From Candidatus Obscuribacteraceae bacterium (GTDB taxonomy: Bacteria > Cyanobacteriota > Vampirovibrionia > Obscuribacterales > Obscuribacteraceae), in contig JBGAHS010000002.1 of the NCBI GenBank assembly GCA_044226015.1, positions 1,203,435 to 1,267,434 on the forward strand: a stretch of 64,000 nt of DNA, read 5' to 3'. This document shows, in pieces, positions 4,885-20,862 of the stretch (positions are counted from its first letter, which is position 1; each line of letters starts with the position of its first letter). The notes beneath the pieces are model-generated. The model was not told the origin of the DNA, made no database searches, and was given only the letters and a program-made list of their open reading frames with translations. The position numbers were made by a program, and so were the translations under genes.

Positions 4885-6378
4885 TTGGACGATAATCAAA
4901 AAATTCAAAGCACTCAGACATTCGCCGAAAGGCTTGCCCTGAAGCTTGACCACAAGAATAGCGTCCCGCTATATCGGCAACTCAGTGAACGACTGCGCGA
5001 GATGATTCTCAGCCTGAAACTTATGCCAGGAGAACTCTTACCTTCGACTCGCGAACTCGCCATAGCTCTCAATGTCTCGAGAAAAACTGTTTTTCGCTGT
5101 TATGAGGACCTGCAGAGTCAGGGCTTCATCAAAACCGAATCTGGCTTAGGAACTTACGTAAACAACTCAAACTTTGCCAACACCAAGAGCACCGGCGAAA
5201 ACGTCATCCAGCACAGGCTGACCGCATATGCCCAAAGTTTGCTGAACTTGCCGGACGAACCAAGCCATCAAGGTGACCATCCCGAACTGCATTTCGGCGC
5301 TCCACCAGTGTCCGAGCTGCCACTGAGCGCATGGCGCCAAATGCTTCTAAAACAACTCAGAAAAACTGATTTAGACCAGTTCTATTATGATACGGAGGCA
5401 TTCGGTTATCTGCCCCTTCGTCAGGCACTTGCTTCTTATCTCATGCGTTCTCGCGCTCTGCATTGCGATGCTGAAAACCTTATCGTTTTTTCGCATGCTT
5501 TGAGCCCACTGCGTTTGCTCGCCAAAATCATGGTCGATGCAGGAGATTCGGTGGCAATGGAAAACCCCGGCTTCCCGTTTGCAAGACAAGTTTTTAGCTC
5601 AATCGGTGCAAAAATAATTCCAGTTGGTGTTGATGCTCAAGGATTGCGTGTACAAGAGTTAGCGGCTCTAAAAGAGCCTGTGAAGCTGGTTTATGTTACA
5701 CCATCCCATCAGGATCCCTGTGGTGTAATGATGAGTCTTGAGCGAAGAAAAGAACTGCTTGCTTGGGCAAAATCGAGCAACTGTTTGATTCTCGAAGACG
5801 ACTATGACAGCGAGTTTCGCTATACAGGCTCAACACTGCCCGCTCTAATGGCTCTTGATGAGAATGAATCGGTGATTTACATTGGCGATATGTGGAAAAC
5901 ACTGTTTCCGCTAGTAAATGTCGGTTACCTCGTTTTACCATCTGGGCTTCGTTCTGTTTTCAAAAAGGCGCAATCTATTAGTTGGACCAAAGCAAGCACC
6001 AGTCTTCCTTTTTTTGATCAGCTGGCACTTACTGATTTCATGAATGATGGTCTTCTCGAAAGACATTTGCGAAAAACCAAATCAACATACGCTAGCCGTT
6101 ACAGAAACCTCATAGTAGGACTGAGTAAGCATTTCAACAATCGAATTGACTATGCAAAAGAAAGCAGCAGCATGCAGCTGTTGATAAAGTTCAAACAACC
6201 TATAAGTGATTCAGAGGTAAAAGCAACTTCGGAAGCTGCCGGCTTATCCGTAGTCTCAACAAGAGCATATTATCAAGGCAATTTTGTTCAAAACGAGTAC
6301 TTACTTGCTTTCGTGATGCTTGAAGAAACAGAGATGAGCCGCCGCCTCAAACTCTGGTCGACTTTGCTTTTTGAATAG
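4885..6378 (+). CDS. MocR/GabR family (GntR HTH + PLP aminotransferase-like domain) transcriptional regulator
   Basis: PLYRQL...LPSTRELA..LNVSRKTV HTH; YVTPSHQDP, LEDDYDSEFRY, YIGDMWKTLFP. Confidence 0.93.
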   Translation: MDDNQKIQSTQTFAERLALKLDHKNSVPLYRQLSERLREMILSLKLMPGELLPSTRELAIALNVSRKTVFRCYEDLQSQGFIKTESGLGTYVNNSNFANTKSTGENVIQHRLTAYAQSLLNLPDEPSHQGDHPELHFGAPPVSELPLSAWRQMLLKQLRKTDLDQFYYDTEAFGYLPLRQALASYLMRSRALHCDAENLIVFSHALSPLRLLAKIMVDAGDSVAMENPGFPFARQVFSSIGAKIIPVGVDAQGLRVQELAALKEPVKLVYVTPSHQDPCGVMMSLERRKELLAWAKSSNCLILEDDYDSEFRYTGSTLPALMALDENESVIYIGDMWKTLFPLVNVGYLVLPSGLRSVFKKAQSISWTKASTSLPFFDQLALTDFMNDGLLERHLRKTKSTYASRYRNLIVGLSKHFNNRIDYAKESSSMQLLIKFKQPISDSEVKATSEAAGLSVVSTRAYYQGNFVQNEYLLAFVMLEETEMSRRLKLWSTLLFE

Positions 6379-6839: not shown

Positions 6840-9056
6840 ATGACTTTTGAAGACACTATCGGAATGTTACTAGCATTGGTTATCGTACTCGGATTTGCCT
6901 TCATGACCCTGCGGCACGAAAAGTGCCACAAACTGCAACTCAGATTCAACGAAAAGGTCTATGCACTCTCTCTCGCGGTGAACCAGTATCGCAGTCTCAA
7001 TTTCGAACTCCAACAAGGACCCAGCGGACTCAACAAAGACAATTGCAAATTCGTGAACTCCAGCCTTGAGGAACACAAAATTGCAAAAGATGCTTGGGCT
7101 AAATTCCTGAGCACCTACACACTTGCAGTTGCGAAGCTGAAAAGCGCTCAAGATTTTCAACACGAAGTGTCTGGAGTTCCAACCTGGTGGAGACTTCCAA
7201 CCTTGCTGGAAATTGCCCTGAAGAATCTCTTCGAAGGTGAATGCAAGGATTTGCCAGACAAACTGACAACAGAAGCAACTGCCGCGAGGGAAGCAATCCA
7301 ACGGTTTGTTACAGCACAAAAGACGAATGATGCGCAACTCTGCAAACTTAATAATCAAATAAGCGGGAACAGTAAGACTATCGTTCCATTGTTCGAAGAG
7401 CTGAAACTATGGGGTCCGACCAGCCCGAGGTACCAGACAGCAGTTACTAACGTGCAAGAGCAATACCTAGAGTTGGAACAGTCCCTAAAGCTGGATCCAC
7501 TTGATCCGAAACAGGAAGCTGTCGCAAATCTAGGAAAGCAGATTGCAAAGCTCACAGCGTTACTGCACAGAGCTCTGCGTCTATTCATTTCTCTTGAAGA
7601 GATGAGATACGCTGTCGTTCGGTTGGAAACGCGAATTGAGTCGATGCGAAACGACCAACCGCTTTCGACAATGACTAATGTACGTTATATCCAAAACGGA
7701 TTCACTCTGGACGAGCCTGGTTTCGAAGTACAGAGCATGCTTGATGATTGTCGAACGCTTCTGGGACTCATGGACAAAGCCCTCCTTAACAGGCGCTTGT
7801 ATTCTTTCAGTAAGTACCATAAGTTGTGTTCAACGAAAACTGAACAGTTGAAGCGTTTGCTCGCAGAAATACTGGACGACAAGTGTTTCGTAGACGAGCA
7901 GATGCAAGCGGTCAAAAAGCAATCCACTGTTGAAGACCGGAAGTCTGACAGGAAGCATTGGACCAAGATCCGCCGATTATACAAGGCTCAGCACTGGCAT
8001 GCAGCAATGCTCAGTGTGAAAGAATTCCTGCTTGAGCACACGCCACGCGTGCAAGCAAGAGAGCAAGTCGGAAAGTTGGCAGATTCTTTCGCGCAGGTAC
8101 TTCGTGTTCTGCAAGCTTATCCGAACGCGATTTCCTTCGAGCTTGATGCTGCTTTTCAGTTGATAACAACTGAGATTAGTTGTCTGCACCAGCAGGCAGC
8201 AAGCAGCAAGGCAGACTGGGCATCGCTAGCAAAGGAAGCTCAAGAACTGGACTTCCGTCTCGTGGGTTCTTCACCTGAATCACTTCTCTTCCGCGGACAG
8301 GCAGAGTTTAATGCCTACGAACAAGCTCAAACTGAGCTGAATAAGCTCATAGAGACAGTGCGCAGATTGGACGAAGAGTTTGCCTTTTGGTGTGGTGAGG
8401 AAGCCGCAAACAAACAGCAAGAGGTGCAGAAACAAGCTTCAGAACTCATCGAAGATGCGAAGATAATCAAACAAGATTGGCAGCAATTAACTGCGCAAAT
8501 TCTTAAGAACATGGAGCTCTTGGAAGAAGCAAACACTTTACTCGAATTGGCAAAGGAGAAACATAGACTTCAAGAATTGCAAATCGAAAAACTCGAAGCT
8601 CAGCTATCGACCTGTCAAAAGGACGAAGCATACAGTCGAGTGATTTGTGGCACCAAATTCGGTGCCTGCATCTACATTCAGGATGAACAGCCTCAGAAAC
8701 TGCTTGCAAAAGCAAAGGCAAGCTTGAAGGGTCGAGACTATGAATCCATGCATCTTGATCTCCAGCAGGCGCGCGCACGCCTGTCTTCAGAGAACGTTGA
8801 GGCATGGTGGTTGTGCTTACAATTGATGGCTAACAGCGATGTAGCTTGCGCGCGTTCATTCGCCCTCAAGCATGGTTACACTCCTGGAGGCTTTGATTTG
8901 TGGTCCCAAGAGAAACTGAAGACAGACCATGAAGAACTCTATGTTCCTTCAAGTCATGCCTGTGCACACAAAGGGGGAAGCGCTTATCCAGTGATCTACC
9001 CCAACGATTTTCCTGTCATGAGCGATTATGAAGGCGGGCTAGTGCCAGCCGGATGA
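6840..9056 (+). CDS. N-terminally membrane-anchored long helical/coiled-coil protein (paralog of 18173-20026)
   Basis: TM at aa ~7-23, extensive heptads; C-terminal WWLCLQLMANS..AL.HGY motif shared with the paralog. Confidence 0.75.
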   Translation: MTFEDTIGMLLALVIVLGFAFMTLRHEKCHKLQLRFNEKVYALSLAVNQYRSLNFELQQGPSGLNKDNCKFVNSSLEEHKIAKDAWAKFLSTYTLAVAKLKSAQDFQHEVSGVPTWWRLPTLLEIALKNLFEGECKDLPDKLTTEATAAREAIQRFVTAQKTNDAQLCKLNNQISGNSKTIVPLFEELKLWGPTSPRYQTAVTNVQEQYLELEQSLKLDPLDPKQEAVANLGKQIAKLTALLHRALRLFISLEEMRYAVVRLETRIESMRNDQPLSTMTNVRYIQNGFTLDEPGFEVQSMLDDCRTLLGLMDKALLNRRLYSFSKYHKLCSTKTEQLKRLLAEILDDKCFVDEQMQAVKKQSTVEDRKSDRKHWTKIRRLYKAQHWHAAMLSVKEFLLEHTPRVQAREQVGKLADSFAQVLRVLQAYPNAISFELDAAFQLITTEISCLHQQAASSKADWASLAKEAQELDFRLVGSSPESLLFRGQAEFNAYEQAQTELNKLIETVRRLDEEFAFWCGEEAANKQQEVQKQASELIEDAKIIKQDWQQLTAQILKNMELLEEANTLLELAKEKHRLQELQIEKLEAQLSTCQKDEAYSRVICGTKFGACIYIQDEQPQKLLAKAKASLKGRDYESMHLDLQQARARLSSENVEAWWLCLQLMANSDVACARSFALKHGYTPGGFDLWSQEKLKTDHEELYVPSSHACAHKGGSAYPVIYPNDFPVMSDYEGGLVPAG

Positions 9057-9088
9057 TTCGTCTTTCACGTTGCCTGAAGGGAGGCTTC

Positions 9089-11029
9089 ATGAATAGCTAT
9101 TTTTTGACTCGTCTTAGCAGCGAGCAGAAGAAAAAATTGGATGAGAAATCCATTGCCTACTTTGAATTCGCCCTCGGCGATGAGAATGGTTTGCTCCTGC
9201 AAGCTGACGCCATGGAATCAGCCCTGGAGGTTCTAGAGCTGATTGCGGAAGAACAAGTTGCCACAAACTACGAAGGTATTTTTCGTACCAGGGTAAGAGC
9301 TACTCACTCCGAACTCGCCTCAGCTGCGAACGTGGGCTCCTGGAAAGGCAAGAACAAGCATGGCATGTTGCAGATAGTTCAACAGCTGTTCTTGCCATAC
9401 TTGCAAAAACAGATCGTTTTGGAAAATCGCCACGGAGTTGTTGCACCCATCAACGATGGCAACTTCCACATTCACATCTACTCTGCACCTGTCAAAACAT
9501 CAGGTTGCAACACTCCCAAAACGATCTGGGGAATTCCCACTCAGTCCTCTAGCAATTCCTGGAGTCCAAGCGGCAAAGGGACTTGCTTCTACGACGGCAA
9601 ATACGCCGTTGCAGAACTTCTCGAGCAGAACAATCTGTATGTTTTCCATAATCTAGCGGAGAGTGGAAATGTTAATGAGGAGATGCTGTTCTCAGTTCTC
9701 CTCGATCGTGTTTTGCAACACCTGCAGCCTGAGCAATCAGAAGCCCAGGCAAAGCACCTGTTTATCGATGCTTGTTCGTACTTTCGCTGCGCTGGACTCA
9801 CCGAAGCCAGCGGTTCTGCCGACGAGCTTCAGGTATCAATCCGAGAGCTTAAGAAAGAGTTGAAGAAATGCTCACGCGCAGCCGCTGCTGAAGAACTCAA
9901 ACTTCTTCGCAATGAGAAAATTTCAACTGATGAAATCTTTGCAGCGGAATACGAGAATCTTCTCAAAGTTCCAAAAGTAACAGATGTTCAAGTTGAAAAC
10001 GGCGTCATCATCGTTTCAACAGAAGTACTTTACGCAAAGGATCCGCGATCGGACAAATATCACGAGATTGGCGCATTCAAGATTCACCTTTCACCCGAAA
10101 ATGAGAGCCCCCGCTGGTTCAATCAGACGCGGCTGGTAAAATCAATTGGTACGAAACCAATGCAAGCGGTGCACGTCTTTAACAGCGGCATGGCCTGCCT
10201 CGGAAACACAGAAGCCTTGTTCAAAGACTTGTTTAAGCAGCGAGAATGGGCGCTCGCAGCGCAGGTAGCCATAGAATTTGCCGAGAGCGTAAATCAGCGT
10301 CAGCGCGACAATGCTGGTTTACATGTAACCGAGTGGCCGGAAGCTGCTGATGCTGATGTTGCGCGCCGCGATAAACGCATCAGTCGACCCAAAAAGTTAA
10401 CTGATGCACAACTCGCGTACAAGCCGCAGTACATCTCTGCTTGTGCCGATCGTGTGAACTCGCTGATTAAAGATTCTCTCTGTCAGATCGAATCGATACG
10501 CAGAACAGTTGAAGAACTTCAAGCTGAGCTCGTTTCCCTTTTGCGGAACCGCGCCTCAAAATTGAAACAGGCGACTCGTAAGAAACTCTGCAATCGAGAT
10601 GAAATTGCAGCGGAATTCGACGCGCTGTTAAGAGTCCCGAAAGTAACTGGCGTTCGTGTACAAGATCGCAGTGTCACAATTTCGACTGAGACACTGTTTT
10701 GCACCTGTCCAAATTCCAAACTCAAACGAGAAATTGGCAGTTTCCTGATCAAAATCAATCTGGATGGAAGCGGAGATTGCGTGCGCTGGATAAATACCAG
10801 CCGCCAGGTCAAAGCTCTCTTTCAGAAGCAAAACGCCGTCCGAGTGCTAAGTAGCGGGCGTGCGCTGTTCAGCGATATTCGCGAATCCTTCCCGGATCTG
10901 ATTGCTGACTTCAAGTTGGCAATTCTTGCACAGCTGGCAATTGAATTCATCGAACAAATTGATGCCGATGAGCCAGCTTCCTCTTTCCTTGATCAATGGC
11001 CAGAGTCCCAAACCTCAGGAGCAATCTAA
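9089..11029 (+). CDS. Prokaryotic E2-fold protein with two tandem coiled-coil+E2 modules (first active-type, second inactive)
   Basis: RBS gggagg before ATG 9089; repeat period 223 aa; module 1 AVHVFNSGMACLGN (His and Cys, Cys codon 10196), module 2 AVRVLSSGRALFSD; adjacent JAB, ThiF and Ubl genes. Confidence 0.75.
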   Translation: MNSYFLTRLSSEQKKKLDEKSIAYFEFALGDENGLLLQADAMESALEVLELIAEEQVATNYEGIFRTRVRATHSELASAANVGSWKGKNKHGMLQIVQQLFLPYLQKQIVLENRHGVVAPINDGNFHIHIYSAPVKTSGCNTPKTIWGIPTQSSSNSWSPSGKGTCFYDGKYAVAELLEQNNLYVFHNLAESGNVNEEMLFSVLLDRVLQHLQPEQSEAQAKHLFIDACSYFRCAGLTEASGSADELQVSIRELKKELKKCSRAAAAEELKLLRNEKISTDEIFAAEYENLLKVPKVTDVQVENGVIIVSTEVLYAKDPRSDKYHEIGAFKIHLSPENESPRWFNQTRLVKSIGTKPMQAVHVFNSGMACLGNTEALFKDLFKQREWALAAQVAIEFAESVNQRQRDNAGLHVTEWPEAADADVARRDKRISRPKKLTDAQLAYKPQYISACADRVNSLIKDSLCQIESIRRTVEELQAELVSLLRNRASKLKQATRKKLCNRDEIAAEFDALLRVPKVTGVRVQDRSVTISTETLFCTCPNSKLKREIGSFLIKINLDGSGDCVRWINTSRQVKALFQKQNAVRVLSSGRALFSDIRESFPDLIADFKLAILAQLAIEFIEQIDADEPASSFLDQWPESQTSGAI

Positions 11030-12240
11030 TGTATTTTTCAAGAAGAGAACAGCCTCTTACACCCCACAGTTTCAATACGCAGGTCAGGTTTCTGCCCAAA
11101 GCAGAACCGAAGAAACCGCGAATTGTTCTTTCCCGACTAGCATTTGCACAGATGACTGTGTATGTGAAAATCGCACAGGAAGAAGTCGGTTGGATGGGCA
11201 CAGTGAAGCGCCTTCCAGATGGTGACTTTCTGATTGAAAAGTGTTTCTTGTTCAAGCAGAAGGTCCATGCAACTGAAACTGAAATCAGCACAGAAGGATT
11301 CTCTGAACTCTCAATGGAGCTGCTCAACACAGCGACTGATGACGAAGACGAATCGAACTGGGAGGTGAACAAGCTCCGTTTCTGGGGTCATTCACACGTC
11401 AGAATGGCTACAGGACCCTCAGACACAGACCAGCGTGCGATGCTCACCTCATTCGGCAAGGGACACTCTAACAACACCGGGCAGCTTCGTTTTTGCTTCG
11501 AAGAATGCGGTTATCCTTGGGTGATTCGCGGTATCTTCAACAAATTCGGTGAAGCGAACTTTGATGTTTATCTTTATTCTGAAGGCTTGCACTTTGCGGA
11601 CGTTGAGTGGACGGTAGAAGACCCTAGCGCAGAAGAGATTGCTTTACAGAAGCAGGTCGATACGCTCTGTTTAGCCATCCAAACAGGACTGTTTCCAAAT
11701 AAAGAAACAACAAAACCTGCCAAGGTTGCCACTCTCGGAGAGCCTGAGTCCGACTCAAGCGTCTGTCCTCAAAGGAAGAGTCCTAATACCTTCGGTTTTG
11801 GCATCGATCGTGAACTGAGGTATTGGCCTCACATTACTCCGGAATTGCGTACCGCCATTCAACAAGAATTCGACAAGAAGGTTGTAAGTGTGCGTCGTCA
11901 TTCAGAAGAGCCGCAGCAAACGAAATCCGGATGGCGGTCCATGTTTCAACAACGTACTAGCAGCGCACAGGTTCAAACCAACTCTGCAGATTCCTCAACT
12001 TCGACCGAGCAATATCCAAGCGAGTTCGGTGATGAAGTCTACGGGCGAGGCTCAGCTCCCGACATGGGCTCAGCCTCTGCAAGACCAGCTCTTCAAATCG
12101 GCAAAGAACATCGAGCCGAAACACCGCGAACAAATGAAGTGCGGTGGATTGCACCAAAACCAAAAGAAACGCCCAAAACGACCAGCATTTCTGAAACCTT
12201 GCGCACGGCATGGAGCGAGCTCCTCGACTTCCTCTCCTAG
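11029..12240 (+). CDS. JAB/MPN+ metallopeptidase with long disordered C-terminal tail
   Basis: EEVGW...WGHSHVRMATGPSDTD = E..HxH..PSxxD; ATG overlaps the upstream stop (taatg). Confidence 0.88.
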   Translation: MYFSRREQPLTPHSFNTQVRFLPKAEPKKPRIVLSRLAFAQMTVYVKIAQEEVGWMGTVKRLPDGDFLIEKCFLFKQKVHATETEISTEGFSELSMELLNTATDDEDESNWEVNKLRFWGHSHVRMATGPSDTDQRAMLTSFGKGHSNNTGQLRFCFEECGYPWVIRGIFNKFGEANFDVYLYSEGLHFADVEWTVEDPSAEEIALQKQVDTLCLAIQTGLFPNKETTKPAKVATLGEPESDSSVCPQRKSPNTFGFGIDRELRYWPHITPELRTAIQQEFDKKVVSVRRHSEEPQQTKSGWRSMFQQRTSSAQVQTNSADSSTSTEQYPSEFGDEVYGRGSAPDMGSASARPALQIGKEHRAETPRTNEVRWIAPKPKETPKTTSISETLRTAWSELLDFLS

Positions 12241-12315: not shown

Positions 12316-13002
12316 ATGATTGATACGCAACGACATCTGTCAGTTTTTGATCCAGATGCTTTTGGCAGCAAGATTGTCGACGTAATCGGTGTCGGTGCTA
12401 CCGGCTCGAAGGTTGTACTCAGCCTGGCTAAGCTGGGCATCCAAAACATTCGTGCATGGGACGCCGACGTTCTCGAAGCGCACAACATCTGCAACCAGGC
12501 ATACGCAAAAGAAGATATCGGCCTGAAAAAGGTCGAAGCTCTGAAGGAAATGGTCTGGCGCCAAGCCGGCTTGAACCTGGATGCAAGAGCTGAATATGTT
12601 GACGGCACACAAGAACTCGGTCCAATCGTATTCTTGCTAACCGACACTATGTCCTCCCGCAAGAAGATCTGGGAAGGCAGCTTGCGCTTCAAATCGCGTG
12701 TCAAGCTAGTGGTGGAAACCCGCCTTGGCGCTGAGTCGTCGTACATTTACAGTATCAACCCTTGCTCACTGCCTGAAGTACAGGGTTGGGAAAGCACACT
12801 CTGCGATGACGATAAAGTTGAGCGCTCCGCATGTGGAAGCAAGATTTCCGTCGGTCCCAGCGCTGGAATTCTCGCAGAGAAGGCTGTATGGCAATTGATT
12901 CGCTGGTTCGCCATCGAGAACGGTCAGGATGACGTTCTTGACCATGAGATCATCGAGTCCTTCCGTCCACCTGCAATCTACACCAGACAGTTCGAAGATT
13001 GA
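12316..13002 (+). CDS. ThiF/E1-like Ubl-activating enzyme
   Basis: VIGVGATGS (GxGxxG), DADVLEAHNICNQ, GLKKV, LTDT, ETRLG; candidate catalytic Cys in ERSACG (codon 12832); no CxxC Zn site. Confidence 0.9.
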   Translation: MIDTQRHLSVFDPDAFGSKIVDVIGVGATGSKVVLSLAKLGIQNIRAWDADVLEAHNICNQAYAKEDIGLKKVEALKEMVWRQAGLNLDARAEYVDGTQELGPIVFLLTDTMSSRKKIWEGSLRFKSRVKLVVETRLGAESSYIYSINPCSLPEVQGWESTLCDDDKVERSACGSKISVGPSAGILAEKAVWQLIRWFAIENGQDDVLDHEIIESFRPPAIYTRQFED

Positions 13003-13202: not shown

Positions 13203-13457
13203 ATGTCCACTGAAAACAGTAATAAAAACGGTGTCGATAGCGCTCCTGAAATGCTCAGCGTGCGAGTCGGCAAAATGCCTGGCAACATCACAATCAAGAA
13301 GGTCTCCCCAGGCTCAACAGCGGCTGACGTGTTGCGCATGGCAGACCTTGACCCCAGCGACCACGAAGTGCGTGTCAATGGAGTTCCAGCCAACCTGACT
13401 CAAAAATTGCGGCACAACGATGCGGTGTTGTTGTTCAAGCCACTGGCCGGCAACTAG
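13203..13457 (+). CDS. Ubiquitin-like (beta-grasp) protein 1, C-terminus ...LAGN
   Basis: ThiS/MoaD/Ub-like pattern (GSTAADVL, VRVNG, LRHNDAVLL); directly follows E1. Confidence 0.85.
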   Translation: MSTENSNKNGVDSAPEMLSVRVGKMPGNITIKKVSPGSTAADVLRMADLDPSDHEVRVNGVPANLTQKLRHNDAVLLFKPLAGN

Positions 13458-13554: not shown

Positions 13555-14478
13555 ATGGGAACTTTCATTAATGTGTTCGTTCTTGGACCACTCCTGGGAC
13601 TGCTTACTATTCAGTTGCTGGCTCGGGTACACCAAATCAAGAATCGTGTTTTGCCGAAGCCCAAGAATGAGCTGCGAGTGCTAGTAAATGGCGTCGCTGT
13701 GATTTTCGAACTGATTGGCATGTGCGCAATCAGCATGTTTTTGGGCGCCGGAATTCTCGCTCTGTCAGTGCCAATGCTGTTGATCGCTCAGCTTATCATT
13801 GCCGGTGAAGATGCTGGCGAAGATAACGTCAAAGCAAAAATGGTTATTGAAACCTACCAGCGATGGTCTACCAGGTTCAAGCTCGTCGCCCAGATTACGT
13901 TCAATCATGGACGGGTGCTAGTACAATCGTACACAAGTAGCCGTTCTCCTCGATCCTCCGAGAACGCAACAGTCGGCACGACAGAAAAAACTCCTACCCG
14001 TGCTGAGCCGATTAGCTGCCCACGAAAACCATTGAGTGAGCAAGAATTGCTACAGCAACTGGTGGCAAAGGTTGCACAGTTACAACAATGGGCATCGCGC
14101 CCAGAATCTGACCGTGTAGCCGTTGCTGAACTGACAAAGCAGGCGCGCGACCTGGAGGAAGCACTCAATGCTGAAGTGCAAAAGCTTGAAACCGGCACCA
14201 CCGACTGGAAAGACATCTGCTCTCACATCGAAGGTCTAAACCGCCATCAGCTACCGGCAGAGCTATCCAGCGCACTCAATGAACTGGTTCAAGAGCGTGC
14301 CGCCAAGCTTGACACCAATCGGGATGATGTTGCTCTGCTTTCGAGCGAGTTGCGCGCCACAGCAGACAACCTGAAGCAAAAGCTCACCACGCGGTCTCTC
14401 TCTCCTGAAGAAGTGATCAGCTCTGCTAATGCAGCACTGGATTCGGCTGAGCAAGTCTGCTCAAAATCCCAAAGCTAA
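13555..14478 (+). CDS. Membrane protein (about 3 TM) with C-terminal coiled-coil domain homologous to downstream CC proteins
   Basis: Hydrophobic N-terminus; C-terminal LQQLVAKVAQLQ...SPEEVISSANAALDSAEQV aligns to LNDVLAQVQKLQ...SAEDAILDAEAAIAEAAQV. Confidence 0.75.
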   Translation: MGTFINVFVLGPLLGLLTIQLLARVHQIKNRVLPKPKNELRVLVNGVAVIFELIGMCAISMFLGAGILALSVPMLLIAQLIIAGEDAGEDNVKAKMVIETYQRWSTRFKLVAQITFNHGRVLVQSYTSSRSPRSSENATVGTTEKTPTRAEPISCPRKPLSEQELLQQLVAKVAQLQQWASRPESDRVAVAELTKQARDLEEALNAEVQKLETGTTDWKDICSHIEGLNRHQLPAELSSALNELVQERAAKLDTNRDDVALLSSELRATADNLKQKLTTRSLSPEEVISSANAALDSAEQVCSKSQS

Positions 14479-14514
14479 GTAGCACACAAGCACGATGACA
14501 TAGATTTCGTCTAA

Positions 14515-14572
14515 CAGCAGGTCGCAATGTCTGCTGGGCTCCCAAAAGGCAGGCCCAAACGGGCCTGTCTTT
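14515..14572 (+). other. Two-hairpin intergenic RNA element, copy 1
   Basis: cagcag/ctgctg stem and aaaggcaggccc-aaac-gggcctgtcttt stem; conserved with compensatory changes in copy 2. Confidence 0.55.
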
Positions 14573-14630
14573 CTGGAAATTTGTACACACTCAAAATGTT
14601 CACAAGCACACCTAACTGAAAGAACCGAAA

Positions 14631-15164
14631 ATGGGACTCTACACAGCCAAGACTAACTCAATGGAAGCGCTGAACGACGTACTGGCACAAGTACAAAAGC
14701 TCCAAGCAAATGTCGGTCTTACCGAGACAGAGCGAGCTGAACGTCAGCGCCTGCAAGCTGAAGTACAGTCAAAACAACAAGCCCTGCAAACAGCGACGCA
14801 GCGCCTGAAGTCTACGACTGAGATTTGCGAGCAAACCGCGGCACGTATCCAGACGATCGCTGATATCAGCGCTTCCCTTGGCACCGAAATGGCTGCATTG
14901 CCAACTGACCTGCAGACTCAATGCGCCGCCGTGAACGACCATTTGACTGGCTTGTCCTCTAAGCTGTCCGAACTGGCAAACTCATGCCAAAACGACAAAG
15001 CGACGGCAAGAGAAGTGGTCGAGCAAAAGAAAGGCGAACTCCAGTCTGCCAAGGAAGCTCTCCTCGCTGATATCAACAAGCAACGCCCTTCAGCTGAAGA
15101 CGCCATTCTTGATGCAGAAGCAGCAATCGCCGAAGCGGCACAAGTCTCATCGAACCAGGACTAA
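14631..15164 (+). CDS. Soluble coiled-coil protein CC1
   Basis: 177 aa, A/E/Q/L-rich heptads; near-identical paralog at 15711. Confidence 0.85.
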   Translation: MGLYTAKTNSMEALNDVLAQVQKLQANVGLTETERAERQRLQAEVQSKQQALQTATQRLKSTTEICEQTAARIQTIADISASLGTEMAALPTDLQTQCAAVNDHLTGLSSKLSELANSCQNDKATAREVVEQKKGELQSAKEALLADINKQRPSAEDAILDAEAAIAEAAQVSSNQD

Positions 15165-15251
15165 AGTTCCCGTCCGAGTTCAAATTCGCTCAGCCCATGT
15201 TTATTGCCTGTAACCATTTCACAAAATCCTCTTGTAACAGGACAGCTATAG

Positions 15252-15503
15252 ATGACCATCAACAAAAACAACAGCGGCGTTGAGCCCACTCCAGAGATGC
15301 TCAGTGTGCGAGTCGGCAAAATGCCTGGCAATATCACAATCAAGAAAGTCTCAACCGGTTCAACAGCTTCTGACGTGTTGCGCATGGCAGACCTTGATCC
15401 GACCGATCACGAAGTGCGTGTCAACGGAGTTCCTGCCAATTTGACTCAAGAGCTGCGTCATAACGATGCGGTGTTGTTATTCAAGCCTCTGGCGGGCAAC
15501 TAG
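15252..15503 (+). CDS. Ubiquitin-like protein 2, C-terminus ...LAGN
   Basis: 66/70 aa identical to Ubl1 from PEMLSV to the end, with many synonymous differences. Confidence 0.85.
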   Translation: MTINKNNSGVEPTPEMLSVRVGKMPGNITIKKVSTGSTASDVLRMADLDPTDHEVRVNGVPANLTQELRHNDAVLLFKPLAGN

Positions 15504-15554
15504 CAACAGGCTCTGCAGTCAGCTGAGCAAGTTTGCTCAAAATCCCAAAGCTAA
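15504..15554 (+). pseudogene. 3' remnant of a deleted second copy of the TM-coiled-coil gene
   Basis: Reads QQALQSAEQVCSKSQS*, versus NAALDSAEQVCSKSQS* at the end of 13555-14478. Confidence 0.75.
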
Positions 15555-15593
15555 GTTGTGCTTACAAAGCACAATGATATCGATTTGGTCTAA

Positions 15594-15652
15594 CAGCAGA
15601 TCGCAATGTCTGCTGGATTCCCAACAGACAGACCCAAACGGGTCTGTCTGTT
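15594..15652 (+). other. Two-hairpin intergenic RNA element, copy 2
   Basis: cagcaga/tctgctg stem and aacagacagaccc-aaac-gggtctgtctgtt stem. Confidence 0.55.
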
Positions 15653-15710
15653 TGCAAATTTGTACACAGTGTCAAATGTTCACAAGCACACCTAACTGAA
15701 AGAACCGAAA

Positions 15711-16241
15711 ATGGGACTCTACACCAAGGCTGACTCAATGGAAGCGCTGAACGACGTACTGGCTCAAGTAAAGAAGCTGCAAGCAGAAACCAGCCTCACC
15801 GAGACAGAGCGTGCTGAACGTCAGCGCCTGCAAGCTGAAGTACAGTCAAAACAACAAGCCCTGCAAACAGCGACGCAGCGCCTGAAGTCTACGACTGAGA
15901 TTTGCGAGCAGACCGCGGCACGTATCCAAACTATCGCTGACATTGCAGCGTCACTCAGCACCGAAATGGCTGCATTGCCAACGGACCTGCAGACTCAATG
16001 CACCGCCGTGAACGACCATTTGACCGGCTTATCCACTAAGTTGTCCGAACTGGCAAACTCATGTCAAAACGACAAATCGGCGGCCAGAGAAGCGGTAGAG
16101 CAAAAGAAAGGCGAGCTGCAGTCTGCAAAGGAAGCTCTCCTCGCTGATATCAACAAGCAACGCCCTTCAGCTGAAGACGCCATTCTTGATGCAGACGCAG
16201 CAATCGCCGAAGCAGCACGAGTCTCAGCGAACCAGAACTAA
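15711..16241 (+). CDS. Soluble coiled-coil protein CC2
   Basis: 176 aa, duplicate of CC1 including the upstream region (ctgaaagaaccgaaaatgggactc). Confidence 0.85.
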   Translation: MGLYTKADSMEALNDVLAQVKKLQAETSLTETERAERQRLQAEVQSKQQALQTATQRLKSTTEICEQTAARIQTIADIAASLSTEMAALPTDLQTQCTAVNDHLTGLSTKLSELANSCQNDKSAAREAVEQKKGELQSAKEALLADINKQRPSAEDAILDADAAIAEAARVSANQN

Positions 16242-16343
16242 AGTTCTCGCCTAGTTTACCCTGGCAAATAGCATCCAACTACATGAATGCTATTTGCCTC
16301 TCTACGAATTTCCACCAAATCCGTTAACAACGAAAGACATCAA

Positions 16344-17126
16344 ATGAGCCAATCATCCTATTTCCTGCCAGCCTTGACTGCCGCAGACGCACAAACCCTG
16401 GAAGCTGCTGGCTGCATCTGTGCATTGACCACAATCAACCATGAGACTGGATACATCATCAATCCTGGAGACCTGGAATTGGCAATCCAGCGCTTGAACG
16501 CCGTAGTCGATCAAATGAATTCGACAGGTCAGTTCGGCGTCATGCGCGTGACTCTCCTTCGCACAGACGTAGCGACGGCTCGCACGAAGCAGCGAGGCAC
16601 TTCTTCGAAAGATAGCTCTATGGAAGCGCTGTCCACTGTACTTGCCCAGGTGCAACGGCTTCAGGCGCAGGTCAATCTCACAGACACTGAACGTGATGAA
16701 CGTCTACGCTTACAAGCTGAAGTTCAGTCGAAACAGAAAGATCTGGAAACCGCAACTCAGCGCCTGAAGTCAACTGTTGCGATCTACAATCAAACCGCAG
16801 CGCGCATTCGTACAATCGCAGAAATTGCGGGTGCACTGGGCACAGAAATGGAAGCTTTGCCTGCTGAACTGCAGGGTCAATGCAGCTCTGTCAACGAGCA
16901 TCTAAACGGTCTGGCAGCCAAACTCACCGATCTGGCAAATTCCTGCCAAAACGACAAAGCCGCAGCGCTGCAAGCAGTCGAGGGAAAGAAATCCGAGCTT
17001 CAAGCCGCTAAGGATGCTCTGGTCAACGACATGAGCAAGAAACGAGTTTCGGCTGAAGAAGCCCTGCTCGATGCAGAAACCGCGCTCAACGACGCAGAGA
17101 GCGTCGCATTCAAGCAACAAAGTTGA
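16344..17126 (+). CDS. Coiled-coil protein CC3 with an N-terminal ~70-aa domain shared with the E2 protein
   Basis: From SMEAL onward it aligns with CC1/CC2; N-terminal SYFL..L domain aligns gaplessly to 9095-9304. Confidence 0.82.
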   Translation: MSQSSYFLPALTAADAQTLEAAGCICALTTINHETGYIINPGDLELAIQRLNAVVDQMNSTGQFGVMRVTLLRTDVATARTKQRGTSSKDSSMEALSTVLAQVQRLQAQVNLTDTERDERLRLQAEVQSKQKDLETATQRLKSTVAIYNQTAARIRTIAEIAGALGTEMEALPAELQGQCSSVNEHLNGLAAKLTDLANSCQNDKAAALQAVEGKKSELQAAKDALVNDMSKKRVSAEEALLDAETALNDAESVAFKQQS

Positions 17127-18172: not shown

Positions 18173-20026
18173 TTAGTTCCACGGTGCCTTGAAATCAGGA
18201 GCAGGCCCGAAGTCAGCGCCACCACCATTGGTGCCGTTCAAATCGGGTTGCCACAGACCTCCGGCCGAGGTGGCACGCTTGCTGACAAAACCGTCGACCC
18301 ATTCCGTGCAGGTTTTGTCATCGCGGTAACCGTTGTTCCAGGCAGTGCGCTGGGCAACCCGGTCGTTGCTGTTCCGCATTTGCCGCAGAAGATTGAACCA
18401 GCCAATGTTATTGACTGCCCCAAGCTCTTTGCGCAATGAACGGACAGCCTCAGAATAACCGACCTGCTCGCCAGCACGCCAGGCGCGAACAGCCGCATCG
18501 TAGCGAGCCGAAGCCTCATCGAGGTGGCTGCTAAAATTGCTGTCGCGTCGGCTTGCATCTGCACCGCTGTAGTTCCGTCCATTGATGGTGCAGCTAAAGG
18601 CGTTCCACGCGCTGCTCTGCTTGAGCTGGGTCTTCAGCTCGGACAACTCATCCCACTTCTTGTTGTCGTCGTTGACTGCCTGCTTCGCATCCTTCAACTT
18701 CTGGATGCCGTCTTCTGCGTCTCGCTTCACCTGACGCCAATCCTGCTTGGTCAAGCGAATCTGACGTTCGATGCGAGTAGAGATGTCGTTTATAACGTTG
18801 ACCTTCTGCTTCGTTGCATCAGTCAATTCGTTATGCAGACTTTGAGACAGGAAGCTCAACGGAGGGGTTCCGTTGCGATCCGCATCTTCAAAGTCACGAC
18901 GGAAGTTCTTCACGGCAACCAGCGCATCATCGTAATCACGACGAGACTGCACAGCCTCGTCGCGAACAGCGTTCAACGACTTCTCAATACTCTGACCACT
19001 GGACTTCAGGTCAGTCCAATTAGAGTGGTCTTGCTTGAGCGACTCAGCAAGGCTGTTGAGCTGATTCTTCAGCGACTCGAACTTCTGGTCAGTGCTCGTC
19101 GAAGTGAAGTTCGCATTGTCTTCCAACGAGCGCGCAACATCTCGCTGCAGACGCTGACAGTACGCAACTACCTCACGCGTTTCGCGGCGATCCTCAATGC
19201 GCTGATTAAGCGCATCCATCCGACGAGCTGCACTCACGAACTTGTGTTCGAAGTAAGCTGCCTTGACGGAAGATTCGTAGCTGCTATCGCTGCCCTCGGA
19301 CTTCTGCAAAATCGCCGTCAATTCACTCTCTACCCGCTTCTTAGAGCTGAAAGCGCGATCGATGCAAGCAGTGGCGGACGCAGCAGAAGACTTGGCGTTT
19401 TTCAGAGAAGCAGCAGCTGAACGCGGGTCACCAGCTTCCAACGCCCCATCGATACTGTCCAGTGAGCGGCGGGCAGCCGAGATGTGCGCGTCTGGGTTGT
19501 TGTCCTCCTCTTCAAGGCGCAGCTTCTCCGAGCGCGAAGAAGTACCAGGATAGTTGAGGTCGATCGTTTGCCGGCGCGCTTGCTCAACACGCTCTTCGGC
19601 ATTGCTGAGAGCGGAACGAGCGCCGCTGTCAGTCTTCACCTCGATAGCCAGATTCAGATCAGACAGCACTGATTGGAAGTGCCCCTCCGCTTCCGCGGAG
19701 ATTTTGTCGGCGGCCTGCGGGTCGCGCGAAAGTACGGTTTCCGCCGTCTTCAGCTCACGTTCAGCCGAGTCGAAGCGACTCTGGTAGGGCTGAAACTTGA
19801 GGCCGGTTCCTGAAAGGGTGCCTTGCTGTCGCAAGATTTGCGCCTGCAGCTGGTGGCAGGCAGCGATGTGCGCCTGGCTGCTGGTTTTCGCCGCCTCGAC
19901 ATTGTGCCGATGGATGGCGTAGCCGATGATGCTGCCGATGATCACAACGGCGGCGATGGCGATAGCGATGATGACGCCCTGATTCGCCTGCCCCCGTCGA
20001 TTCCGATTCGTGTTACTCATGTTCAT
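18173..20026 (-). CDS. Membrane-anchored long helical/coiled-coil protein (paralog of 6840-9056)
   Basis: N-terminal TM (VIIAIAIAAVVIIGSIIG); KQDWRQV and WFNLLRQMRNS..AWNNGY match KQDWQQL and WWLCLQLMANS..ALKHGY. Confidence 0.8.
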   Translation of the reverse strand: MNMSNTNRNRRGQANQGVIIAIAIAAVVIIGSIIGYAIHRHNVEAAKTSSQAHIAACHQLQAQILRQQGTLSGTGLKFQPYQSRFDSAERELKTAETVLSRDPQAADKISAEAEGHFQSVLSDLNLAIEVKTDSGARSALSNAEERVEQARRQTIDLNYPGTSSRSEKLRLEEEDNNPDAHISAARRSLDSIDGALEAGDPRSAAASLKNAKSSAASATACIDRAFSSKKRVESELTAILQKSEGSDSSYESSVKAAYFEHKFVSAARRMDALNQRIEDRRETREVVAYCQRLQRDVARSLEDNANFTSTSTDQKFESLKNQLNSLAESLKQDHSNWTDLKSSGQSIEKSLNAVRDEAVQSRRDYDDALVAVKNFRRDFEDADRNGTPPLSFLSQSLHNELTDATKQKVNVINDISTRIERQIRLTKQDWRQVKRDAEDGIQKLKDAKQAVNDDNKKWDELSELKTQLKQSSAWNAFSCTINGRNYSGADASRRDSNFSSHLDEASARYDAAVRAWRAGEQVGYSEAVRSLRKELGAVNNIGWFNLLRQMRNSNDRVAQRTAWNNGYRDDKTCTEWVDGFVSKRATSAGGLWQPDLNGTNGGGADFGPAPDFKAPWN

Positions 20027-20256: not shown

Positions 20257-20862
20257 CTAATGGTGCCGTGTCACGAAGCTGCGGGATAGTTCGCCGATGG
20301 TGCGCACAGCCACCTCGCGAGCGAATTCGGCCGGGTCTGGATTCGGGTTCTCCCAATCCAACCATGACCCTGACTCCCGCAGTACACGTGCCTGATCTGC
20401 ATCGTCGAATCCTGCCGCTTTCAGCGAACGACCGACGCGCATTCCCGCCGTGTAGGTATACCGTTCGGTTCCCTCGTAATGTCGCTTACTGCGAACGACG
20501 ACCAGCACACAGTATGTGTAGGTTGGGAACCCTCTGAGATAGCGATAAGCATCCAACTGCTGTGTCGCGACTGCTGCACCATCCATGCCACCATCTTCCT
20601 GACGAGTGAACGTCACAAAGAAAGCGACTCCGTTCTTGTTACCAAGTCGGGTCAGCTGGCGCTGGAGATTGCTGCGCTCGATGAGGGGCGAGTCGTCGTC
20701 GAAAGTCCATGATGGACTGACCCAAACTCGCTGGTCGTCGAGATAATCTTTTACTCGTGGTTTCATAAATTGCTCCGGTAGACGCAATCGAAAAAACTCT
20801 TCTAGTTCTATCGATGGAACGATAGCAGCAAGTGACCGAGGACCAACATTTGTTGGATGCAT
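20257..20862 (-). CDS. TPM (TLP18.3/Psb32/MOLO-1)-like domain protein
   Basis: LQRQLTRL..KNGVAFFVTF..DGAAVA..VLVVV..RVGRSL..FDD pattern resembles the TPM fold; start uncertain. Confidence 0.55.
   Translation of the reverse strand: MHPTNVGPRSLAAIVPSIELEEFFRLRLPEQFMKPRVKDYLDDQRVWVSPSWTFDDDSPLIERSNLQRQLTRLGNKNGVAFFVTFTRQEDGGMDGAAVATQQLDAYRYLRGFPTYTYCVLVVVRSKRHYEGTERYTYTAGMRVGRSLKAAGFDDADQARVLRESGSWLDWENPNPDPAEFAREVAVRTIGELSRSFVTRHH

Follow-up and report, generated by a model that had tools for sequence, protein, structure and literature searches.

An apparently undescribed, membrane-linked bacterial ubiquitin-like operon with a family of acidic helical-hairpin proteins

Among described bacterial ubiquitin-like (Ubl) conjugation systems, Bil and Bub come closest to the operon analyzed here. 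Bil modifies a phage structural protein, according to the part of the report available to us (10.1101/2023.09.26.559546); the corresponding parts of the two Bub reports give the targets of that system as unknown (10.1101/2024.11.21.623953, 10.1101/2024.11.21.623966), and these portions describe neither Bil nor Bub as membrane-anchored. We analyzed a 64,000-nucleotide stretch of a Candidatus Obscuribacteraceae genome (the window; contig C1, 1203435-1267434). Between positions 6840 and 17126 it carries 10 protein-coding genes, all on the plus strand, in the order TML, putative E2, JAB, E1, Ubl, TM-CC, CC, Ubl, CC, and N-CC. TML is a long helical protein with a single transmembrane (TM) segment; CC denotes a coiled-coil domain that stands alone, behind a TM anchor (TM-CC), or behind a module also found in the putative E2 (N-module; N-CC). 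This is apparently an undescribed, membrane-linked type of bacterial Ubl operon, and its CC proteins form a real, uncatalogued domain family that is a dedicated part of one Ubl-operon branch. We tentatively favor, with confidence somewhat short of an even chance, a reading in which TM-CC and N-CC, as members of an acidic hairpin family, assemble as a membrane scaffold that docks on the E2 and likely is, or presents, the Ubl target. A literature search found no title or abstract opening that describes the operon type or the CC domain; supplementary operon tables of bioRxiv reports might list relatives.

The CC domain family and its tandem duplication

The preliminary description of this locus held that four open reading frames (ORFs), starting at 13555, 14631, 15711, and 16344, are paralogues of one domain with different N-terminal attachments. 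Non-circular profile searches over the 24,319 ORFs of the same genome bear this out. Pairwise homology of the 13555 domain is weak (E = 0.06 with 14631 and 1e-5 with 16344). A TM-class profile made without window sequences retrieves, after 13555, the ORFs at 15711 (1e-8), 14631 (9e-8), and 16344 (1e-4), with the best unrelated ORF at 0.018; the reciprocal profile retrieves 13555 at 5e-4, with the best unrelated ORF at 0.35. The four window ORFs come first in both directions. All columns of the motif quoted in the preliminary description are invariant in the four-way alignment, and the arrangements are as it gave them: one domain behind about three TM helices, two standing alone (14631 and 15711), and one fused to a module shared with the putative E2. 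For this module, a profile from 52 E2-only N-modules has just two matches with E ≤ 1 among the ORFs of the genome: the 16344 protein (3e-7) and the E2 of the window (1e-14). The domain length of about 170 amino acids stands for the soluble copies and fails for the 13555 copy, which has 147 and is shorter by 23 at the hairpin tip.

The free CC copies at 14631 and 15711 are 91% identical in nucleotides and 90% in amino acids (dN/dS 0.21); they are the product of a recent DNA duplication and are under purifying selection. The duplicated unit also holds the second Ubl and a 47-nucleotide remnant of the 3' end of TM-CC. A Ubl-[TM-CC]-CC unit was duplicated, and the second TM-CC was then deleted, leaving these 47 nucleotides. 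The duplication junction is also present in contigs from an independent 2016 run (X2). Read-through of the Ubl 2 TAG into the in-frame remnant (15501-15554 for both) would append the last helix of TM-CC to the Ubl; the shared frame is probably a coincidence.

Run against 1.84 billion representatives, the CC profile had 38 matches at E ≤ 0.001; eight of these, long or repetitive (P0064 was examined among them), were dropped as generic coiled coils, as were weak matches in G069 and in G085 (E about 2e-4). Also left out were P0006, which is the window's own entry, and two fragments, P0051 and P0059. Together with proteins from the loci described below, the family comprises 46 rows, or 44 distinct proteins: 22 TM-CC, 13 N-CC, 7 free CC, and 2 Ubl-CC. 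The domain spans 144-170 amino acids. About 147 is the rule; the 170-residue form makes up a sub-clade, to which the soluble copies of the window belong. A FastTree phylogeny places TM and soluble classes in largely separate clades and has free CCs arise several times. Searches of the CC proteins against Pfam, NCBIfam, PADLOC, and PHROGs returned nothing but sub-threshold coiled-coil noise; PspA_IM30 and Snf7 are not among the best 25 of the 81 families matched. PDB sequence profiles gave generic helical proteins only, and the best ESM Atlas score (0.76) is uninformative.

Table 1. Features of the operon (positions within the window)
Feature	Position	Strand	Remarks
TML	6840..9056	+	738 aa; single TM, long helical protein; adjoins TM-less E2
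Putative E2-pseudoE2 fusion	9053..11029	+	no N-terminal TM; domain map and alignment
E2 fusion, N-module	9089-9304
E2 fusion, Cys-bearing domain	9938-10342		Cys382
E2 fusion, Cys-less domain	10604-11005
JAB/JAMM-type peptidase	10996..12240	+	long low-complexity tail
Single-domain ThiF/E1	12316..13002	+	228 aa; invariant Cys173
Ubl 1	13203..13457	+	terminus ...LAGN; ThiS E = 0.008, below cut-off
TM-CC	13555..14478	+	about 3 TM helices, linker, 147-aa CC domain (residues 161-307)
Intergenic stretch	14488..14644	+	duplicated at 15567-15724 (repeat families D3, D7)
Free CC copy 1	14631..15164	+	177 aa; Lys150 is the family's best-kept lysine
Ubl 2	15252..15503	+	87% identical to Ubl 1; dN/dS 0.10
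TM-CC 3'-end remnant	15510..15556	+	in frame behind Ubl 2 stop; 89% identical to 14434-14480
Free CC copy 2	15711..16241	+	176 aa; recent duplicate of the 14631 copy
N-CC	16344..17126	+	N-module 16350-16565; 170-aa CC domain 16614-17123

Distribution, composition, and membrane link of the operon

Of the order's 107 genomes, 34 have a match to the E1 and 5 a strong match to the CC profile. Forty regions around E1 or CC matches, together with the window and a Saccharibacteria locus (L002), gave 41 E1 loci, several of which stop at contig ends. The accessory gene is a ClpC-like AAA+ gene (Pfam AAA_2, ClpB_D2-small) alone in 28 of them and CC alone in 5, while 8 have neither; the two never occur together. 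The preliminary description had made its proposal depend on the conservation of CC genes beside the conjugation genes, and in six of six loci with a CC gene and E1 on one contig they do lie beside E1, E2, JAB, and Ubl. TM-CC and N-CC are found together with TML, fused E2, JAB, E1, and Ubl in five genomes and on one metagenome contig (L096), the sixth CC locus, which reads TML-E2-JAB-E1-Ubl-TM-CC-N-CC. One of these loci (G060) is split over three contig pieces, and TML was not seen in L044, where the locus stops at the contig end. The conserved CC core is the TM-CC/N-CC pair, both members being kept in every complete locus. The pair spans two genera, with identities of about 26-33% between classes and between genera, and turned up in none of the others among the 107 genomes; the E2 profile had no match in 400 further sampled genomes of the phylum.

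The commoner form of the operon (28/41 loci; L046-L078, e.g., L062:10097-12538) has the order Ubl, TM-E2, pseudo-E2, JAB, E1, and ClpC-like AAA+. It looks like a membrane-anchored Ubl tagging and unfoldase system, which we take to be reminiscent of endoplasmic-reticulum-associated degradation. In the Saccharibacteria genome (L002:8080-11401) a minimal version consists of CC-E2, JAB, E1, and a 219-amino acid gene, with no CC or Clp genes; its E2, JAB, and E1 have no match in phage collections, and the 219-amino acid product, which has no Pfam match, looks by eye like a two-repeat Ubl. The operon family is common in one order, with a relative in Saccharibacteria. In it, Ubl enzymes are tied to the membrane, and the accessory module is either a ClpC-like unfoldase or the hairpin pair.

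The two operon types differ in their E2 genes. The commoner type has one long E2 gene, for a protein with TM segment, N-module, and Cys-bearing domain, and one short gene, whose product combines an N-module with a degenerate domain. The CC type has a single fusion of both, with one N-module and no TM, and a second N-module sits on N-CC in 5/5 complete CC loci. This distribution suggests that N-CC docks on the E2 by N-module/N-module contact. TML lies directly upstream of the TM-less E2 in all nine such loci with upstream DNA and is absent from all 28 ClpC-type loci; it is likely the membrane partner of this E2. Some E2/pseudo-E2 pairs lack an E1, JAB, or Ubl of their own; they occur with TML in L083-L085 and as second pairs in L056, L057, L063, and L064, and some genomes of genus g34 have up to seven N-module matches.

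No Pfam family was found for TML in the six homologues scanned; its layout (one TM, then long helical repeats) we take to be like that of EzrA, a likeness that Pfam does not support. A distant paralogue of TML (617 amino acids, one TM, E = 2e-4 against the 6840 protein) lies just past the operon at 18173-20026 on the minus strand, preceded by a 201-amino acid gene (20257-20862, minus strand) that has no library match and is presumably TPM-domain-like. A further paralogue is on contig C6 near 703897.

Only the E1 exceeds the Pfam cut-off among the operon proteins (ThiF, E = 1e-11); its nearest named relative, from Candidatus Obscuribacterales, is 77% identical. Cys173 is present in 41/41 E1 relatives, and so is the metal-site motif E..HSH..S..D in 41/41 JAB relatives; against Prok-JAB members, the JAB protein gives an HH E value of 4e-4 over 20 columns (reversed decoy, 0.15). 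A Gly-Asn pair forms the Ubl end or junction in all 33 relatives, including the linkers of poly-Ubl genes. The Asn is invariant in both window Ubls and 31 related ones, and many of these genes stop directly after it; it reflects either a strict P1' preference of JAB or an unusual Asn C terminus on the mature Ubl. Poly-Ubl genes with two to three head-to-tail repeats linked by Gly-Asn (L056, L057, L062-L064, L066, L070, L071, and L094) resemble eukaryotic polyubiquitin precursors. Two natural Ubl-CC fusions, L040:2486-3226 (G059) and P0038, keep the Gly-Asn junction in front of a CC of the soluble class. If the cleavage of BubAB by JAB and the pre-processing of BilA are taken as models, cutting such a fusion would yield what the neighboring Ubl and CC genes of the window encode.

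The GC content of the operon is like that of its flanks, and a promoter and terminator scan of the window gave a signal near chance level. The N-CC ORF was listed from 16287; the second ATG, at 16344, is the start point of homologues. Three of 42 loci (window 4885-6378, L040:11599-13053, and L062:1877-3334) have an upstream MocR/GntR-PLP gene in the same orientation, possibly a regulator and possibly a chance neighbor.

Fold of the CC domain and proposed role of the TM-CC/N-CC pair

An AlphaFold2 (AF2) model of the 14631 CC domain has helices at residues 2-19, 24-80, 84-140, and 147-167 (H1-H4; pLDDT 84.5, lowest at the end helices), that is, a hairpin of 57 + 57 residues followed by 29 residues with a single 21-residue helix. 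Invariant residues of the family are concentrated in the two end helices (H1 and H4), where H2 begins, and where H3 ends. Set beside alpha0, the free N-terminal helix with which PspA/Vipp1/ESCRT-III proteins bind membranes, H1 is amphipathic (moment 0.20-0.68) but near neutral (net charge -2 to +2). The preliminary description invited comparison with PspA/Vipp1/ESCRT-III, and very divergent subunits of that kind could form polymers on the membrane and reshape it, with the Ubl in control. As far as the accessible part of the structural report goes, the PspA hairpin spans residues 24-142 (PMC8281802), close to 24-140 in the long CC class, which shares with the superfamily a short N-helix followed by an antiparallel hairpin of like length. 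Structure comparison by VIA also aligns PspA (4whe) over 118 residues at 2.4 Å and Z = 9.7. Yet this match ranks 26th, behind unrelated hairpins (CT670/YscO, colicin, HDAC-complex, dynein, and SMC), and like all CC matches falls below the Z of about 13 at which VIA advises caution for helical bundles. Foldseek gave no match at E ≤ 0.001, with Vipp1 at E = 0.14 and a TM-score of 0.35. For the same report, in that part, the superfamily is marked by alpha4 and a domain-swapped alpha5 in addition to the hairpin (PMC8281802). The CC has one helix in place of alpha4 plus alpha5, and its hairpin length varies, being 23 residues shorter in most members. Moreover, 22/22 measured domains are acidic (pI 4.65-5.65), and another domain precedes the N-helix in 37 of the 44 proteins. 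Finally, PF04012 retrieves the true PspA/Vipp1 proteins of the genome (three matches above cut-off, on C8 and C10) and nothing in the window at E ≤ 1. The proposed kinship is not upheld, and we rejected membership of the CC in this superfamily, although the domain may work like a hairpin polymer tethered to the membrane; divergent subunits of this type are highly improbable.

The best VIA rows point elsewhere. For the CC they are CT670 and YscO (Z = 12.4 and 11.3; 149 and 147 residues aligned; root-mean-square deviation [rmsd] 5.5 and 5.0). For the 72-residue N-module, modeled as beta-alpha-beta-beta-alpha-beta-beta with a pLDDT of 92.6, they are PrgK 19-92 (Z = 5.3, rmsd 2.7, 50 aligned) and EscJ (Z = 5.1). 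The N-module could thus be a ring-building motif like that of PrgK/EscJ and the CC a stalk like YscO/CdsO/FliJ, in a ring-shaped membrane machine that exports or unfolds Ubl-tagged proteins. All these scores, however, lie in the range that VIA calls common; ACT domains do as well as PrgK (CASTOR2, Z = 5.2), and searches with the N-module in Pfam, the PDB, and viral folds gave nothing at E ≤ 0.001. Unlike the secretion proteins, the loci offer neither a sequence match nor a type III secretion context, and those with CC contain no gene for an ATPase or an export gate. Such a machine is, in our judgment, very improbable.

In the scaffold reading that we favor, JAB would trim the Ubl at the Gly-Asn junction, and E1 would activate it through Cys173 and pass it to the Cys-bearing E2 domain, with the Cys-less domain as a non-catalytic partner; these steps are modeled on Bil and Bub biochemistry. 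TML would hold the E2 at the inner membrane. The first loop of TM-CC is basic, which by the positive-inside rule implies a cytoplasmic CC. N-CC may bind the E2 N-module and so replace the N-module of the separate pseudo-E2 in the commoner operon type. We propose that N-CC and TM-CC pair through H1 and H4 because invariant residues cluster there and AF2 is least sure of the placement of these helices in the monomer. The best candidate for a Ubl acceptor would be the lysine before H4, which is kept in 32 of 46 rows. Free CCs would be dispensable extra copies of the N-CC class, made from separate genes or from a cleavable Ubl-CC precursor. Judged by analogy only, the system probably serves a response, linked to the membrane, against stress or phage. 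Should the CC proteins indeed be scaffold or substrate, the operon would encode its own target and the system could be reconstituted from seven genes; a role of bacterial Ubl tagging in membrane protein quality control or remodeling would then become directly testable.

Several observations weigh against this assignment. No lysine is invariant in the CC, and the window TM-CC lacks the best-kept one. The E2 and UEV-like labels are putative, from motif and context: the motif PHV..G.ACLG is conserved and in register with four Prok-E2_B members, but HH E values against these (0.014-0.035) overlap those of decoys (0.028-0.71), so that the assignment lacks statistical footing. Neither Pfam nor PDB gave a match for this protein, and an ESM Atlas score of 0.91 to unnamed, partly phage clusters is a lead only. 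N-module counts in complete non-CC loci (n = 26) vary: 14 have two or more, 11 have one, and one has none. We also considered TM-CC and N-CC as replacements for the lost TM of the E2. This idea was demoted, since the loss tracks TML, including in three loci (L083-L085) that have TML and TM-less E2 genes without CC; the CCs are therefore not needed as an E2 anchor, and the pair is more likely a client or output in place of Clp. All CC loci and one truncated locus fall into one E1 clade (SH-aLRT 97, quick tree), and the co-occurrence patterns therefore amount to one evolutionary event rather than independent cases.

This single origin and the lack of CC in 29 of the 34 E1-carrying genomes would also suit CC genes that are loosely attached accessories outside conjugation, with fusions and duplications as tolerated accidents of local recombination. 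Clear traces of local duplication and deletion and the repeated origin of free CCs on the domain tree fit such a history, but the retention of the TM-CC/N-CC pair across two genera, its domain in common with the E2, and its absence elsewhere in the order speak against it, and we hold it quite unlikely.

Alternatively, the pair may be an output effector, a two-component, membrane-acting helical protein (one subunit with TM, one soluble) that is switched when the Ubl is attached or removed and that, for example, arrests the infected cell. It occupies the place of the ClpC-like ATPase of 28 other loci, its TM and soluble classes form largely separate clades and are both present in every complete locus, and soluble copies have been amplified in the window's genus. 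Against an effector, matches to pore-formers are no better than coiled-coil noise (NCBIfam E = 0.02-0.08, far under cut-off), and the three-TM anchor suggests a resident protein. Pfam found no defense families in 29 flanking ORFs, so the window is not a defense island, which tells against the favored scaffold reading as well. An effector is, on balance, unlikely. Very unlikely, too, is a bolder variant, an independently evolved analogue of ubiquitin-ESCRT: the tethered E2/pseudo-E2 would tag a new class of hairpin subunits. Starting at a seed with a TM anchor, these would co-polymerize and deform or breach the inner membrane, while JAB would remove the tag again and also free subunits from Ubl-CC precursors.

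Comparison with known Ubl systems

Two eukaryotic arrangements offer functional parallels, with no homology implied. Ubc13-Mms2 is a pair of an active and an inactive E2 (UEV), and the putative E2 pair of the window would work likewise; ubiquitin-ribosomal protein fusions carry a cleavable N-terminal ubiquitin, as Ubl-CC would carry a cleavable Ubl.

Among bacterial systems, type I/II Bil (10.1101/2023.09.26.559546), as presented in the part of the report at hand, likewise has separate Ubl, E2, JAB, and E1 genes and a short extension after the Ubl Gly, and its gene order Ubl-E2-(E2)-JAB-E1 is matched by the commoner relatives of the window operon. The Bil E1, in contrast, consists of IAD, AAD, and CYS, whereas the window-type E1 is one 228-residue ThiF domain. 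PADLOC matches only the adenylation region of the E1, to E1-E2 models. Unlike in that account of Bil, the E2 here is a Cys/Cys-less pair associated with coiled coils, the N-module, and a membrane anchor, and the operon has either a ClpC-like ATPase or the CC pair as accessory.

With Bub, within the accessible parts of its two reports (10.1101/2024.11.21.623953; 10.1101/2024.11.21.623966), the operon has in common Ubl fusions cleaved by JAB, poly-Ubl genes, and Cys-less E2-like domains. A few Bub Ubls are described there with N-terminal coiled coils; here, the coiled coil is C-terminal to the Ubl Gly. Bub-type JAB-E1, Ubl-E2, and E2-E1 fusions, as those texts give them, are absent from our locus maps, where the genes are separate, and E1 and E2 here keep conserved cysteines, unlike their Bub counterparts. 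DUF6527 (Bub/6E) has no match among 14 window proteins. The operon works like Bil and Bub, yet it departs from their defining features in having a single-domain E1, no DUF6527, and none of the characteristic fusions.

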